Positions 22,991 through 28,028 of a DNA stretch of 35,132 nucleotides are shown piece after piece. This DNA comes from an uncultured Rhodothermales bacterium. GTDB lineage: Bacteria; Bacteroidota; Rhodothermia; Rhodothermales; BA12. The notes under the pieces were generated by a model. It saw nothing but the letters and a program-made list of their open reading frames with translations, was not told the origin of the DNA and did no database searches. The translations under genes and the position numbers were made by a program. The stretch lies in assembly GCA_965365535.1 (NCBI GenBank), contig CBDUCD010000002.1:1-35132 (forward strand), written 5' to 3'. Within the stretch, counting starts at the first letter, position 1; the number at the start of each line of letters is the position of its first letter.

Positions 22991-23082
22991 GGACGGTAGC
23001 ATGGTGTTGCCGTGAAAATAGGGTGCTCCCGCGCGCAACGCCGACCCGAGGGTGCACCTTTCCGCCCCAATCCCTCGCCCCC

Positions 23083-24189
23083 GTGACGCCTCCCGCCCCA
23101 CCGCTGACGGTTACCGTTGCCCGCATTGATCTGGGCGCCATCCGCCACAACGCGCGCCTGCTGGCCCGCCAGGCCGGCGCGTCCCGGCTGATGGCCGTCG
23201 TCAAGGCGGATGCCTACGGCCACGGCGCCGCCCCCGTCAGCCAGATGCTCGAAAGGGACGGCGTCCGCGATTTCGCCGTGGCGACGGTTGCCGAGGGCGT
23301 GGCGCTGCGGCGCGCGGGCGTGGGCGGGCGCATTCTCGTGTTCGCGCCGCCGCAGCCCGCGTTTCTCGAAGCGTACGCCGCGCACAACCTGGAGGCGTCC
23401 ATCCCGTCGCTCGAAGGGGCGCGGATGGTGCGTGCCAGCGGGCTGCCCCTTGCCGTCCACCTCAAGGTGGATACGGGGATGCACCGGCTGGGCGTGGCGC
23501 CCGCCGAAGTCGCCGACGCCGTCGCGCTGCTGGACGCGCCGCCGCTCCGCCTTGCCGCCCTCTGGACGCACTACGCCACGGCGGACGAAACGGGCGACAC
23601 GTTTGCCGACCGGCAGCGCGAAAAGCTGCTGGCCGCCCGCGCCTGCGCGCCCCACGTGCCCGTCCACGCCGCCAACAGCGCCTCGGTGATTACCGGGCAC
23701 GGAACGGTCGAAGGCGCCGACGTGGTGCGCTGCGGCGTGGCGCTTTACGGCCTGCCCGCGCCCGAGGAAAGCCGCGTCGGCGGCGAAAGCCTGCGCCCGG
23801 CCATGCAGTTCGTCTCGCAGGTGGTGGCCGTGCGGCGCGTGGCGGCGGGGGAGGGCGTCTCGTACGGCCTCGCGTGGCGGGCGCCCGCGCCCACGTGGAT
23901 TGCGACGGTTGGCGCCGGCTACGCCGATGGCGTCCGGCGCGGGCTGTCGGAAAGGGGCGAGGTGGGCATCGGCGGCAGGCGCTACCCCATCGCGGGGCGC
24001 GTGTGCATGGACGCCTTCATGGTCGCCGCAGGGCCGGCGGACGAGCCGTGCCCCGTCGCCGTGGGCGACGAGGTGGTGCTGTGGGGGCCGGGCGGGCCGT
24101 CGGCAGCCCAGGTGGCCGGGTGGCTGGGCACCATCCCCTACGAGGTGGCGTGCGGCGTGGGCGCCCGCGTGCCGCGCCTTTACCCCTGA
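23083..24189 (+). CDS. alr: Alanine racemase
   Basis: PLP lysine motif AVVKADAYGHG, HLKVDTGMHRLG, GVSYG, GYADG, GRVCMD, GTIPYE. GTG 23083 chosen as start (uncertain). Confidence 0.96.
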   Translation: MTPPAPPLTVTVARIDLGAIRHNARLLARQAGASRLMAVVKADAYGHGAAPVSQMLERDGVRDFAVATVAEGVALRRAGVGGRILVFAPPQPAFLEAYAAHNLEASIPSLEGARMVRASGLPLAVHLKVDTGMHRLGVAPAEVADAVALLDAPPLRLAALWTHYATADETGDTFADRQREKLLAARACAPHVPVHAANSASVITGHGTVEGADVVRCGVALYGLPAPEESRVGGESLRPAMQFVSQVVAVRRVAAGEGVSYGLAWRAPAPTWIATVGAGYADGVRRGLSERGEVGIGGRRYPIAGRVCMDAFMVAAGPADEPCPVAVGDEVVLWGPGGPSAAQVAGWLGTIPYEVACGVGARVPRLYP

Positions 24190-24365
24190 ACGGACTGGCG
24201 GGCGGCGCGCTCGTCCACGCGGGCCAGCAGGTGGGACAGCGTGCAGCCTTCGCCGCGCCCCACGGGCGGGGCACCCGGCGCCCGCACGGGACGCGTGGGT
24301 GCGGGCGTGGCGAGGGCGCGGAGGGCGCCGGGCAGCAGGTCGCGGAGCGATACGGGCTGGGCCAT
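24180..24365 (-). CDS. Possible small hypothetical protein (61 aa)
   Basis: ATG-initiated ORF filling the gap after alr, with a 10-nt convergent overlap. Amphipathic N-terminus PVSLRDLLPGALRALA. No recognised family. Confidence 0.4.
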   Translation of the reverse strand: MAQPVSLRDLLPGALRALATPAPTRPVRAPGAPPVGRGEGCTLSHLLARVDERAARQSVQG

Positions 24366-24508
24366 CGGTAGAGCGGGGTTAGCCTGGCGCCCAAGCTCGC
24401 CCCGGCCCGTGACAGTCCTGTGTCGTGCCGCGCCGTGTGAAAGCGGCGTGGGATTGTAATGAACCCGTTGCGCAACCGTTAACTTCCCGCCCGCTTTGCC
24501 GCCCTTCT

Positions 24509-25027
24509 ATGCGCCAGGTCACGTTTCAACGGCTCGTCTGCGCCCTGCTCCTCGCCGGGGCGGTGGCGTCGTGGCTGCCGTTCGGGCGCGACATGCAGGC
24601 GCGGGCCGAGTGGGTGGACAGGCTGCTGCGCCTGTCGGACCGGGCGACGGACGAGGCGCTGCGGGCCGTGTACGTGCGCGCCCTCGAACGCGTCCCGCCG
24701 GACACGCGGGCGTACGTCGAGGCCATCGCCGGGCTGGCCGTGTCGCGCCCGGCGTGGTTTGGCGTCGAGGCGTTCACGCCCGAAGCCCTCGACCTCATCG
24801 AGCAGCACATGGGCGCCGTGCCACCCGCCCGCGCGGACGACCCCGCCTTTGTGCCCGCGCCCGCCTCGCCGCCGCCCGTGCGAATGACGGCCACGGGTGG
24901 GCTGCTGGCCGGGGAAAGGTTCAGGCTGCCGGCCCGCGCCGGCGTGCTGATGGCATCGGCGGCCCCCGCCCTTGCGCGCCCCCTCGCGCGCCTCGTGGGC
25001 CGGGCCCTCTCGCCCCGCGCGCCCTGA
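24509..25027 (+). CDS. Membrane/secretion-targeted uORF of secDF ending PRAP-stop; candidate arrest (monitoring) peptide
   Basis: ATG 24509; N-terminal hydrophobic segment LVCALLLAGAVASWLPF; helical middle; Pro/Ala linker; C-terminus LSPRAP-TGA, 108 nt before secD. GC3-biased codons. Confidence refers to the CDS; the function is inference. Confidence 0.75.
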   Translation: MRQVTFQRLVCALLLAGAVASWLPFGRDMQARAEWVDRLLRLSDRATDEALRAVYVRALERVPPDTRAYVEAIAGLAVSRPAWFGVEAFTPEALDLIEQHMGAVPPARADDPAFVPAPASPPPVRMTATGGLLAGERFRLPARAGVLMASAAPALARPLARLVGRALSPRAP

Positions 25028-25135
25028 CGGCCAGGCCCGCCCGCCGGGCCGGCCCCCCCTCTGCAACGTGACCGGTCGCCACGCCTCTCGCCGAGAGGGC
25101 GTGCGCGCTGCCCATCGCCCTTTTCCCTTATCTCC

Positions 25136-27016
25136 ATGCGAAACAACGCCATCCGCATTGGCCTGGTCGTCTTTTTCATCCTGCTGACCGGCTACTACCT
25201 CTATCCCTCCGTCCGCTACTACTTTCTCGACCGCAAGCTCGACGCGATGACGGACGAGCAGCGCACCGCCTACCTCGCCGAGGGCGAGAACTTCCAGAAG
25301 GTGCGCGGCCTCAAAGAAGAAGCCCTCAACCTCGGCCTCGACTTGCAGGGCGGCATGCACGTGACGATGGAAGTGGGCGTGCAGGCCCTCATCCGCGCCC
25401 TGGCGACGGAAAACGACGCCACGCTCGAAGCCGCCCTCGCCGACGCGCAGCGCGCCTCGGCCACGTCCGACGAGCCGTTCGTGGACCTGTTCGTAGCTGC
25501 GTTCGAAGCCCGCGACCCCGACGCCCGCCTGTCGCGCTACTTCCGCAACGACGCCTCGGGCCTGGGCCGCAGCGCCTCGAACGCGCAGGTCGCCGCCTAC
25601 CTCAACCAGGAGGCCAATGACGCCGTGGATCGCGCCGTCGAGATCGTGCGGCAGCGCGTGGACCGCTTTGGCGTCACGGAGCCGTCCATCGTCAAGCAGG
25701 GCACGCGCCGCATCGTGGTCGAGCTGCCCGGCATTGACGAGCCCGAGCGCGTGCGGCGCCTGCTGCGCGGCACGGCCCGCCTCGAGTTCCGCCTCATGGC
25801 CGACCCGCAGGCGCTCCAGCGCTCGCTCGGCGACATCATCGCGTACTACGACCGCAGCGGCGCCGCCCCCGGCGACACGGCGGCTGCCGCGCCGGCAGAC
25901 TCGGCCGCCGTCGCCCCCGGCGACACGACGCTCGACCTGACGAACCTGGCGACGCCGCCCGACGAAGAAGTCAAAAACCCCATCCTGCGCTACCTCAACG
26001 CCTATCCGCAGGCGTCCGTCGTGTTCGGGACGGTGGCCATCGCGGACACGGCGGCCCTCAACCGCGCCCTGTTCACCCCCGACGTGCAGGCCCTGCTGCC
26101 CGCTGGCGTCGAACTGATGTACGAGGCCCGGCCCGTGGCCGGCGGCGACGCCATCAACATCCTGGGCGTGCGCAAAAACGTCGAACTCACCGGCGACGTG
26201 ATTACCGAGGCCAGCGTGGACTTCGACGAGACCAACCGCGCCGAGGTCATCATGAACATGAACCCCGAGGGCGCGCGCACGTGGGCCCGCCTCACGGGCG
26301 CCAACATCAACAAGCAGATCGCCATCGTGCTCGACGGCGTCGTGTACTCGTACCCCAACGTGCTCGGGCGCATCTCGGGCGGGCGCTCGTCCATCACCGG
26401 CTTGGATTCGCGCGAGGAGGCGTCCGACGTCGTCACGATTCTCAAGTCGGGCTCGCTGCCGGCGCCCGTCAACATCATCGAAGAGCGGACGGTCGGGCCG
26501 AGCCTGGGCGCCGAGTCCATCCGGGCGGGCCTGCGCTCGCTCATCATCGGCCTCACCCTCGTCGTCATCTTCATGATCGTGTACTACCGCACGGCAGGCG
26601 TGCTGGCGGACATCGCGCTGCTGGTCAACGTCATCTTCATTCTGGGCATTCTGGCGGGCTTCAACGCCACGCTCACGCTGCCGGGCATGGCGGGCATCGT
26701 GCTCACGATTGGTATGGCCGTGGATGCCAACGTGCTCATCTTCGAGCGCGTCCGCGAGGAGATGGCGCACGGGCGCACGCTGCGCGCCGCCGTGGACGCG
26801 GGCTACAGCAAAGCGTTCAGCGCCATTCTCGACGCAAACGTGACGACGTTTTTCACGGGCCTCATTTTGTACTCGTTTGGCGTGGGTCCCATCAAGGGCT
26901 TTGCCGTGACGCTCATGGCGGGCATCCTCGCGTCGCTGTTCAGCGCCATCGTCATCACGCGCATCCTGTTCGACTGGCTCGTCGAGGATCGCAAAGCCCT
27001 CGTCTCGATTGGTTAG
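25136..27016 (+). CDS. secD: Protein translocase subunit SecD
   Basis: LNLGLDLQGGMHV, RVDRFGVTEP, RIVVELPG, VGPSLG, ATLTLPGMAGIVLTIGMAVDANVLIFERVREE. Confidence 0.98.
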   Translation: MRNNAIRIGLVVFFILLTGYYLYPSVRYYFLDRKLDAMTDEQRTAYLAEGENFQKVRGLKEEALNLGLDLQGGMHVTMEVGVQALIRALATENDATLEAALADAQRASATSDEPFVDLFVAAFEARDPDARLSRYFRNDASGLGRSASNAQVAAYLNQEANDAVDRAVEIVRQRVDRFGVTEPSIVKQGTRRIVVELPGIDEPERVRRLLRGTARLEFRLMADPQALQRSLGDIIAYYDRSGAAPGDTAAAAPADSAAVAPGDTTLDLTNLATPPDEEVKNPILRYLNAYPQASVVFGTVAIADTAALNRALFTPDVQALLPAGVELMYEARPVAGGDAINILGVRKNVELTGDVITEASVDFDETNRAEVIMNMNPEGARTWARLTGANINKQIAIVLDGVVYSYPNVLGRISGGRSSITGLDSREEASDVVTILKSGSLPAPVNIIEERTVGPSLGAESIRAGLRSLIIGLTLVVIFMIVYYRTAGVLADIALLVNVIFILGILAGFNATLTLPGMAGIVLTIGMAVDANVLIFERVREEMAHGRTLRAAVDAGYSKAFSAILDANVTTFFTGLILYSFGVGPIKGFAVTLMAGILASLFSAIVITRILFDWLVEDRKALVSIG

Positions 27017-27104: not shown

Positions 27105-28028
27105 ATGCGCATGTTTGAAAACACGCACTACGCGTTTCTCGAAAACCGTAAGTATGCGTACATCATATCGGCCACCATCATCCTCATGGGGATGGGATTT
27201 CTGGCGTTTCGCGGCATCGAAACGGGTATTGACTTCATGGGCGGCATGGAGTTCGTCGTCGAGACGACGCAGCCCCTGGCCGTGCCCGACGCCCGCGCGG
27301 CGCTGTCGCGCGAGTTTGGCGTCGAACCCGAAGTAAAGCGCTACGACGAGGACATCCTCGTCCGCATGACGGGCGAGGGCGAGCAGGAGGCCACGGGCGA
27401 GCGCGTGGTGCAGGCCCTCACGGCGGCGTTTCCCGACGCCAGCCCGAAGGTGGTCAAAACCGACGCCATCAGCCCGCGCTTTGCCGACGATTTGCGCGAG
27501 GGCGCCATCTACGCCGTGCTCGGGTCGCTTCTCGTGATTCTGCTCTACATCTCGATCCGGTTCGAGTGGCGCTTTGGCGCGGGCGCCGTCGTGGCGCTTT
27601 TCCACGACGTGCTCATCACCCTCGGCCTGTTTGCGATGCTGCACCACATTTTGCCGTTTTCGCTCCAGATCGACCAGACCATCATCGCCGCGTTTCTGAC
27701 GATTGTGGGCTATTCCATCAACGACACGGTCGTCGTCTTCGACCGCATCCGCGAGGACCTGGCGGCGCGCAAGGGCGAGGCGTTCGAGGTCGTGGCCAAC
27801 GACGCCATCAACCAGACGCTTTCGCGCACGGTGATCACGTCGGGCACGACCTTGCTCGTGGTGCTGGTGCTGTTTATTTTGGGCGGCGACGTGCTCAAGG
27901 GTTTTTCGTTCGCCCTGCTCGTCGGCATCGGCGTGGGCACGTATTCGTCTATCTTCGTGGCCACGCCCGTCGTGCTCGAACTGCGCAAGCGGATGAAGCC
28001 GGCGCCCGCCCTCGCCCCCAAACGGTAA
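27105..28028 (+). CDS. secF: Protein translocase subunit SecF
   Basis: GIDFMGG, YISIRFEW, ALFHDV, LTIVGYSINDTVVVFDRIRE, GTYSSIFVA. Confidence 0.98.
   Translation: MRMFENTHYAFLENRKYAYIISATIILMGMGFLAFRGIETGIDFMGGMEFVVETTQPLAVPDARAALSREFGVEPEVKRYDEDILVRMTGEGEQEATGERVVQALTAAFPDASPKVVKTDAISPRFADDLREGAIYAVLGSLLVILLYISIRFEWRFGAGAVVALFHDVLITLGLFAMLHHILPFSLQIDQTIIAAFLTIVGYSINDTVVVFDRIREDLAARKGEAFEVVANDAINQTLSRTVITSGTTLLVVLVLFILGGDVLKGFSFALLVGIGVGTYSSIFVATPVVLELRKRMKPAPALAPKR

Follow-up and report, generated by a model that had tools for sequence, protein, structure and literature searches.

In a 35,132-nucleotide stretch of DNA from an uncultured Rhodothermales bacterium (GenBank contig CBDUCD010000002.1, positions 1 to 35,132; hereafter, the window), the gene directly upstream of secD is an upstream open reading frame (uORF) of secDF at 24509..25027. 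It comprises 172 codons followed by TGA and encodes a signal-bearing protein that ends S-P-R-A-P. The uORF is a real gene, its family is linked exclusively to secD, the conservation of its protein is graded toward the C terminus, and the identity of its stop codon is conserved. Judging from these sequence patterns, we consider it fairly probable that the uORF encodes an arrest peptide of the published Pro-stop kind, which would stall the ribosome at the termination stage and act as a secretion sensor for secDF. Coordinates of the uORF, its parts, the spacer behind it, secD, and secF are given on the plus strand.

The gene directly upstream of secD

An earlier note on this DNA, made from the letters alone, had described a gene of 172 amino acids (aa) directly before secD that ends L-S-P-R-A-P-TGA, and both the frame at 24509-25027 and its codon-position GC content bear this out. 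The frame starts with ATG at 24509 and closes with CTC TCG CCC CGC GCG CCC TGA (L-S-P-R-A-P-stop). It is the single plus-strand frame in the interval between the alanine racemase gene alr and secD, and its stop lies 108 nucleotides (nt) from the secD start. The window has a GC content of 65.5%, and spurious open reading frames (ORFs) are abundant on both strands. At codon positions 1/2/3, the GC content of the uORF (0.80/0.58/0.93) resembles that of alr (0.78/0.57/0.90) and secD (0.67/0.44/0.92), with secF similar, which marks it as a coding frame and not as a chance GC-rich ORF. The encoded protein matched no Pfam or NCBIfam family. It has no match to YajC (PF02699), and the source genome encodes YajC on contig C47, away from secD; the uORF is therefore not a YajC substitute.

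A secD-linked family in the Rhodothermales

Searches with the single protein returned just two relatives: a metagenomic protein of 172 aa (58% identity) and a protein from a genome of the same genus (45%), whose gene likewise lies in the interval from alr to secD. The three proteins share the end A-L-S-P-R-A-P and differ at residues ~125-160. For an order-level sample of 41 genomes of the same order, secD was located in 40 genomes at 41 loci (one genome having two), and the 1.5 kb upstream of each locus was read. At 38 of these 41 loci, a rule-based script picked out a uORF, in each case on the secD strand, 87-201 aa long, with an N-terminal hydrophobic segment and a [G/A]-P-stop end. The distance from the uORF end to secD ranges from 89 to 380 nt (measured at 28 loci). 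The earlier note had proposed to inspect the ORFs upstream of secD in relatives, and this comparison turned out in favor of its proposal: the C-terminal end is kept and the middle varies.

The exceptions comprise G029 (98% complete), in which a class II aminoacyl-tRNA synthetase gene stands directly before secD, as it does in a named Rhodothermales metagenome-assembled genome (MAG); G034, a low-GC genome (99% complete) with no Pro-ending uORF before secD; and G006, in which the N- and C-terminal parts of the uORF lie in different frames and the C-terminal part ends Q-P-M-G-P-TAG. The frameshift in G006, a 70% complete MAG, may be an assembly error. In G009, the genome with two secD loci, the uORF 3' ends and the spacers are nearly identical between the loci, and contamination is estimated at 7%; the double locus may represent two strains in one bin and not a duplication.

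A family profile was built from 37 sequences (36 loci and the metagenomic protein, with the near-duplicates L012 and L033 left out). Searched over the 41 relatives, it gave matches in 36 genomes. Each of the 38 matches with E <= 1e-7 is immediately upstream of secD, on the same contig and strand. The remaining two are weak, one falling within secD itself and the other in a frame with four stops. The near-complete genomes G029 (98%), G034 (99%), and G026 (94%) contain no match to the profile. The family is patchy within the order Rhodothermales, and its absence from some near-complete genomes fits a regulatory add-on better than a core subunit. A search of 1.84 billion representative proteins with the profile yielded 276 matches at E <= 1e-3, of which 189 reached E <= 1e-10. 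Rhodocaloribacter litoris encodes a family member annotated as a "hypothetical protein."

The window protein was not matched by a hidden Markov model (HMM) of the family built without the window's genus. In a profile-profile comparison, the three-sequence genus subfamily aligned over residues 1-99 with the family minus those rows (96.6%, E 5e-10). The subfamily of the window's genus is thus divergent, being linked to the family through profile-profile comparison alone.

Conservation of the C-terminal end and of the stop codon

Among the 149 best representatives of the 276 matches (the window's own protein left out), 147 end in Pro; the other two, of 80 and 125 aa, are truncated. The last three residues among 149 are L-G-P in 81, R-A-P in 20, Q-G-P in 15, M-G-P in 13, R-G-P in 11, and others in 6. 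The commonest end is Q-P-L-G-P-stop, and the overall form of the family is P-x-[G/A]-P-stop. The earlier note had taken the window's end for a lineage-specific derivative of R-A-P-P, a view that has to be given up: R-A-P-stop is the minority form (20/149) of an order-wide family.

When 149 family proteins are anchored at their C termini, the information content amounts to 4.3 bits at position -1 and ~1.4 at -13 and stays at a baseline of ~0.5 further in. Pro occupies -1 in 149/149, -2 is G in 123 and A in 26, and Pro is found at -4 in 136/149. A peptide that is read by the exit tunnel and the peptidyl-transferase center would be expected to show graded conservation of this kind, which here spans the last ~13 residues. 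The proposed arrest sequence of the window protein is this conserved C-terminal module, formed by the last 15 residues and ending P(-4)-R-A-P(-1) (24980..25024).

The codons at the end vary. Across the 38 uORFs of the order-level sample, the last Pro is encoded by CCC (19), CCG (13), CCA (3), or CCT (3), and seven and ten different triplets are used at -2 and -3, respectively, which indicates that the amino acids are selected and not a DNA word. The stops of the same uORFs are TAG in 29, TGA in 9, and TAA in 0. TAG follows every one of the 27 x-G-P ends, in genomes of 44% to 73% GC from more than 20 GTDB families. All nine TGA stops follow R-A-P ends in the window's own family (9 of 11 R-A-P ends), and the two R-A-P ends found elsewhere use TAG. 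Ten further Rhodothermales-type uORFs (from nine new, named records) all use TAG as well. As a background, the genes of the source genome stop with TGA in 58%, TAG in 28%, and TAA in 14%. That the stop codon stays constant next to saturated synonymous sites suggests that it has a role when translation terminates. In the window, this codon is the TGA at 25025..25027, the proposed A-site codon of the stalled ribosome.

Organization of the encoded protein

Hydropathy and structure prediction bear out the layout that the earlier note had described, namely, a signal or transmembrane segment, a small helical domain, a Pro/Ala spacer, and a C-terminal motif. The N-terminal targeting segment (residues 1-26; 24509..24586) consists of a basic n-region followed by one hydrophobic core. 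Its best 15-residue Kyte-Doolittle stretch starts at residue 9 (2.33) and is preceded by two Arg and no Asp or Glu; the median start of the core over 149 family proteins is residue 12. A single N-terminal core with a basic n-region is present in the window protein and in 95% of the 149 family proteins, as judged by hydropathy, which does not decide between a cleavable signal and an anchor.

An AlphaFold2 model of the uORF protein, computed from a 146-row alignment, reached a moderate mean predicted local distance difference test (pLDDT) score of 69.8 and a predicted template modeling score of 0.38. Helices are predicted at residues 4-22, 29-42, 49-61, 66-75, 91-102, and 144-166, with the tail free. 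The targeting segment is followed by a small helical domain, presumably periplasmic (residues 37-110; 24617..24838), and by a Pro/Ala-rich variable linker (residues 103-143; 24815..24937) that AlphaFold2 leaves without regular secondary structure (pLDDT 55-68) and that is variable and gapped in the family alignments. The long spacer of the window protein measures 149 residues, and the family median is 158. A Foldseek search of the model against the PDB returned no match at E <= 0.001.

A helical domain related to an insert of SecD

The family profile weakly matched the window's own secD at 25391-25639 (E 9.5e-4). This match falls within a helical insert of SecD (SecD residues 86-169; 25391..25642). 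An hhalign comparison of the 146-row family alignment with 28 Rhodothermales SecD N termini gave 95.9% (E 5.3e-9, 78 columns) and placed window residues 37-110 in register with SecD residues 86-169. In control comparisons, reversed profiles reached at most 0.8% and eight block-shuffled SecD alignments 1-21% (E >= 1e-3). For the reciprocal search, an HMM of SecD residues 84-170 was run against 27,862 sequences (the six-frame ORFs of at least 60 aa from the own genome and 151 family proteins); SecD came out on top, followed by 72 family proteins, 42 of which had E <= 0.01, and no further ORF was matched. The window protein and its two nearest relatives were not matched individually by this HMM. 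The three-sequence window subfamily gave no significant similarity to SecD (0.7%), its best local alignment lying in the same register. A profile of uORFs from the order Balneolales showed no similarity to SecD.

The gap between the Sec_GG and SecD_1st domains measures ~4 residues in the Thermus thermophilus SecDF structure (3AQP) and 78 in the window SecD, so the SecD segment is an insert relative to 3AQP. The ~78-residue helical segment of Rhodothermales SecD is absent from the T. thermophilus and Deinococcus radiodurans SecDF structures and has no Pfam assignment. Match lengths suggest that the insert is also present in SecD of Balneolales, Cytophagales, and Ignavibacteria. Based on these profile comparisons, the middle domain of the family is a paralogue of part of SecD. 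With its helical domain paralogous to the SecD insert, the uORF may have originated in the 5' part of secD or traded sequence with it. Two readings of the SecD-like domain, as a SecDF-specific handle for a sensor and as a sign of a structural role, are not exclusive.

Occurrence outside the Rhodothermales

A scan with a SecD alignment over one genome per species confirmed SecD at 567 loci, and the best 80 of these were retained. A [G/A]-P-stop uORF is present at 35 of the best 80 loci, the nearest loci being Rhodothermales MAGs. Within the best 80 of 567, records labeled Rhodothermales or Rubrivirga have x-G-P or R-A-P ends, and Ignavibacteria, Calditrichia, and most Chitinophagales-type records have no [G/A]-P-stop uORF. 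The Balneolales-type uORFs (~182 aa) have the same kind of N terminus and end G-I-A-I-[G/N]-A-P. Their stops (TAG 9, TAA 4, and TGA 1 in 14 aligned uORFs) stand in contrast to the strict TAG of the Rhodothermales x-G-P ends. The Cytophagales-type uORFs (~115-130 aa) end I-S-P-N-A-P-stop, one residue away from the L-S-P-R-A-P-stop of the window.

Over its N-terminal 81 columns, the Rhodothermales profile is homologous to that of the Balneolales uORFs (94%, E 1.4e-7), which end G-A-P or N-A-P. No profile similarity was found between the Rhodothermales family and 11 Cytophagales-type N-A-P-stop uORFs (hhalign 0.9%). By sequence comparison, then, the family is located directly upstream of secDF throughout the Rhodothermales, and the sister order Balneolales has a family homologous to it.

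Proposed mode of action and alternative explanations

In the termination-stage arrest that we favor, the ribosome would pause at the uORF end, its P site holding peptidyl-Pro-tRNA and its A site the stop codon, and release-factor-catalyzed hydrolysis would be slow. At this point, ~130 residues would already have left the ribosome and engaged the translocon. The pause would raise secDF expression and would end when export pulls on the chain. Because export would end the pause, the length of the pause would report export capacity and set secDF expression. We infer stalling, release by export, and the effect on secDF from the patterns described above, and the step from the stall to secDF is the weakest of them.

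More tentative is a wider version that joins a SecDF-specific sensor, release-factor-specific arrest, an R-A-P bridge, and coupling through Rho; taken together, we hold it to be possible but doubtful. The ribosome-tethered nascent chain would here be recognized or pulled by SecDF through the SecD-like domain, making the sensor specific for SecDF and not for export in general. The arrest would depend on release factor 1 (RF1) for P-x-G-P-TAG and on release factor 2 (RF2) for the S-P-R-A-P-TGA of the window's family. R-A-P-stop would form a natural bridge between the R-A-P-P elongation arrest and the Pro-stop termination arrest, and secD, lacking a Shine-Dalgarno motif, would be coupled via transcription (Rho) and not via the unmasking of a hairpin.

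Several observations weigh against a programmed, export-sensitive arrest. Crude gene calls of the source genome (n = 1728) end in Pro in 169 cases (9.8%), in A-P in 48, and in R-A-P in 2. A Pro or R-A-P end is thus not rare in this GC-rich genome, and the weight rests on the comparison with relatives. These relatives share ancestry, so the stop-codon counts overstate the statistics. The base after the uORF stop is C in 22 of 38 uORFs, and C is also the commonest base at this position genome-wide (401/981). Moreover, the N-terminal ~100 residues are conserved across the order, the folded-looking domain included. In classical monitoring substrates, the mature parts vary; conservation of this kind is out of the ordinary for them and could indicate a separate function of the protein.

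The spacer between the uORF and secD adds to these points. In the window, it is C-rich (25028..25135; C/G ratio 1.73) and contains neither a Shine-Dalgarno-like motif nor a terminator-like site; most loci have no Shine-Dalgarno-like motif before secD. The predicted fold of the window spacer is no more stable than that of shuffled sequences (z -0.57), and consensus folds of three and four close relatives contain weak long-range pairs only. In a footprint simulation, 30 nt around the uORF stop were held single-stranded and the accessibility of the secD start (-20..+10) was predicted at 27 loci. The mean was 0.576 in the free state and 0.567 in the "stalled" state and thus did not rise; a gain above 0.05 was seen at 2/27 loci for the stop versus 1/27 for each of two control positions. 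The C/G ratio of the spacers has a family median of 1.47 versus 1.21 for 147 co-directional spacers of the own genome, 13% of which are as skewed as that of the window. The source genome encodes Rho, and C-rich spacers together with Rho make a route like that of TnaC possible, though unsupported.

On these grounds (the z value, the weak consensus folds, and the negative simulation), a SecM-like hairpin that unmasks the secD start was rejected. The earlier note had compared the uORF to secretion-monitoring substrates in its layout and its control of the downstream gene. The signal, the long spacer in the protein, and the place before secDF fit the published criteria, but the hairpin opening finds no support in the predicted folds of the 27 loci. 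An intrinsic terminator or attenuator was dismissed as well, as no such site was found in the spacer. A read-through fusion of the uORF and secD was also considered and rejected: in the window, the two share a frame, with TGA and 36 sense codons between them, yet only 12 of 28 spacers are in frame, ~1/3 being expected by chance. In one genus group (L024, L027, L030, and L031), the spacer has two well-conserved hairpins with a few compensatory changes, neither of which is followed by a T-run.

Instead of an arrest peptide, the uORF could encode a stable periplasmic or membrane-anchored accessory protein of SecDF, a free-standing copy of the SecD insert that is made as an operon partner without programmed stalling and whose C terminus serves as a docking or processing tail. 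This would suit the order-wide conservation of a helical domain homologous to SecD 86-169 (hhalign 95.9%; controls <= 21%), the reciprocal HMM search, which ranked SecD first and then family proteins alone, the exclusive linkage to secD, and the lack of a predicted RNA switch. However, it leaves unexplained why the stop codon is conserved beside varying synonymous sites, why conservation rises steadily to the last residue, and why the linker is variable and disordered. In addition, some near-complete genomes gave no match to the family although their secDF retains the insert, as the SecD of G029 does, and the model has no fold match to solved structures. We regard an accessory role in place of arrest as unlikely, bearing in mind that the two roles are not exclusive.

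The conserved C-terminal Pro and stop codon would also fit a constitutively slow Pro-stop termination that does not sense export and tunes secDF by Rho shielding, by mRNA stability, or by a fixed uORF:secDF ratio. C-terminal Pro slows termination in Escherichia coli, and TnaC, a sensor of free tryptophan that acts by blocking Rho, stalls the ribosome when peptidyl-Pro-tRNA fills the P site and UGA the A site. A C-rich, G-poor spacer without a terminator hairpin or Shine-Dalgarno motif, the presence of Rho, and the lack of predicted hairpin unmasking agree with such a TnaC-like pause. On the other hand, a conserved targeting segment and a long spacer would be superfluous for it, and the C/G skew is weak against the genome background, so that we judge it quite improbable. 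TnaC resembles the proposed uORF stall in being a termination-stage arrest on peptidyl-Pro-tRNA, with the downstream gene across a spacer of comparable length; it differs as a tryptophan sensor that has no export signal and blocks Rho. A chance open frame in GC-rich DNA with a coincidental R-A-P-stop has in its favor the abundance of long spurious ORFs and the background of ends in the crude gene calls (9.8% Pro and 2/1728 R-A-P). It is refuted by the coding-type codon-position GC content, the same ends at the same position in 38/41 loci, the 276 profile matches, and the non-circular profile-profile homology (96.6%, E 5e-10), and we give it practically no credence.

Relation to known arrest peptides

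Fujiwara 2024 screened >30,000 GTDB genomes for uORFs of secA, secDF, and yidC that lack an annotated function and have an N-terminal signal or transmembrane segment, a conserved C terminus, and a spacer of >30 residues (PMC10987492). The earlier note had set the window's end beside the RAPP type of ApdA/ApdP. The Pro-stop peptides uDF_NAP-stop and uA_NSP-stop of Bacteroidota are closer in kind (PMC10987492); since their stalling at the stop has been shown in vitro, published surveys already cover the Pro-stop kind. Both accumulate peptidyl-tRNA in E. coli and Bacillus subtilis PURE systems, toeprints place the stop codon within the A site, and arrest needs residues -3 and -1 and the stop codon (PMC10987492). 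uDF_NAP-stop merges six secDF clusters, 396 uORFs in all, from "three orders" of Bacteroidota, which are left unnamed in the text of the paper and of its preprint. The clusters were grouped by C-terminal Pro and not by N-A-P, and "RAP*" was among the motif queries (PMC10987492).

The window uORF shares with uDF_NAP-stop its location directly before secDF, the N-terminal signal, the invariant last Pro, the unannotated function, and a host in GTDB Bacteroidota, and its 149-residue spacer exceeds the published >30 residues. It differs at -3, which is R in the window (L, R, M, or Q in the family) and N, shown to matter, in uDF_NAP-stop. Most Rhodothermales members also have G and not A at -2, and the Rhodothermales proteins are longer (~170-190 aa versus ~115-130 aa) and carry a SecD-related domain. 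Judged by its sequence, the window uORF thus agrees with uDF_NAP-stop in every operational criterion except N at -3. Pro-stop uORFs were found in exactly three order-level groups among the best 80 of 567 loci (Rhodothermales, Balneolales, and Cytophagales), and the Rhodothermales may therefore be part of the Fujiwara 2024 dataset already, the chances of which we put at about even. A full-text literature search found no paper joining arrest peptides with Rhodotherm- names, and the term NAP-stop occurs, among the matches listed, in Fujiwara 2024 and its preprint, the others being unrelated by title. The SecD-derived domain and the fixed identity of the stop codon merit the attention of specialists; the domain is a new point, its SecD homology being mentioned nowhere in the passages used here. 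The Rhodothermales are placed in GTDB Bacteroidota.

ApdA, ApdP, and the RQH peptides (Sakiyama 2021, PMC7897499; PMC10951233; PMC10987492) likewise lie upstream of secDF and have an N-terminal signal and a variable spacer, and the R-A-P of the window would occupy the P-site side of the peptidyl-transferase center at the stall. In the window, a stop codon replaces the fourth residue of the RQH motif (R/Q/H)-(A/G/D)-(P/G/S)-(P/G), and most Rhodothermales members have L-G-P, not R-A-P. ApdA and ApdP arrest elongation with Pro-tRNA in the A site, through a hydrogen bond that links the A-site Pro, by its nitrogen, to the Ala carbonyl (Morici 2024, PMC10951233). As R-A-P-P arrest needs A-site Pro-tRNA and a stop codon with a release factor would occupy the A site here, this mechanism is not transferable unchanged. 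The stalls of SecM, VemP, and MifM occur during elongation and free a Shine-Dalgarno sequence from a hairpin (PMC10987492, PMC11470409). They share with the window uORF the targeting signal, the spacer, the C-terminal arrest module, and the position upstream of a translocase gene; the spacer before the window's secD has no Shine-Dalgarno motif, and no unmasking is predicted. The mature parts of these three peptides are unrelated to the regulated machine, whereas the middle domain of the Rhodothermales proteins is paralogous to a segment of SecD.

Should the proposed stalling hold for the family, a termination-stage arrest switch would govern secDF in the whole order and, in another form, in the sister order. 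The reach of a mechanism so far shown with only a few peptides, in heterologous systems of E. coli and B. subtilis, would thereby be extended. The natural variation of the family (L/R/Q/M at -3, G/A at -2, and TAG/TGA) would provide a ready mutational series on how a nascent chain blocks release factors, RF1 versus RF2. The SecD-like domain suggests a route to a sensor specific for one export component and an origin of such sensors. In addition, several hundred "hypothetical proteins" are flagged for annotation.

Neighboring features

The uORF interval is bordered on its 5' side by alr (23023-24189; Pfam Ala_racemase_N and Ala_racemase_C). Downstream, secD (25136..27016) encodes a 626-aa protein with the Pfam domains Sec_GG, SecD_1st, SecDF_P1_head, and SecD_SecF_C and with matches to solved SecDF/SecD structures, and secF (27105..28028) encodes a 307-aa protein that matches SecD_SecF_C at E 9e-67. 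A 61-aa ORF on the minus strand (24183-24365; GC content at the third codon position, 0.90) points away from the uORF and runs into the final bases of alr. It matched no Pfam or NCBIfam family; the relative G002 has a 65-aa counterpart at the same place, with a similar N terminus and a common internal motif, and the ORF is possibly a small real gene.

In the region upstream of the uORF, the sole match to a sigma-70-like consensus falls on the minus strand. At ~24470-24480, ~30 nt 5' of the uORF start, a stretch of nine bases, CGTTAACTT (one variant base), is kept in the window, G001, and G002, upstream of sequence that has otherwise diverged. A second short conserved block is found ~115 nt upstream, and both are possibly promoter elements.

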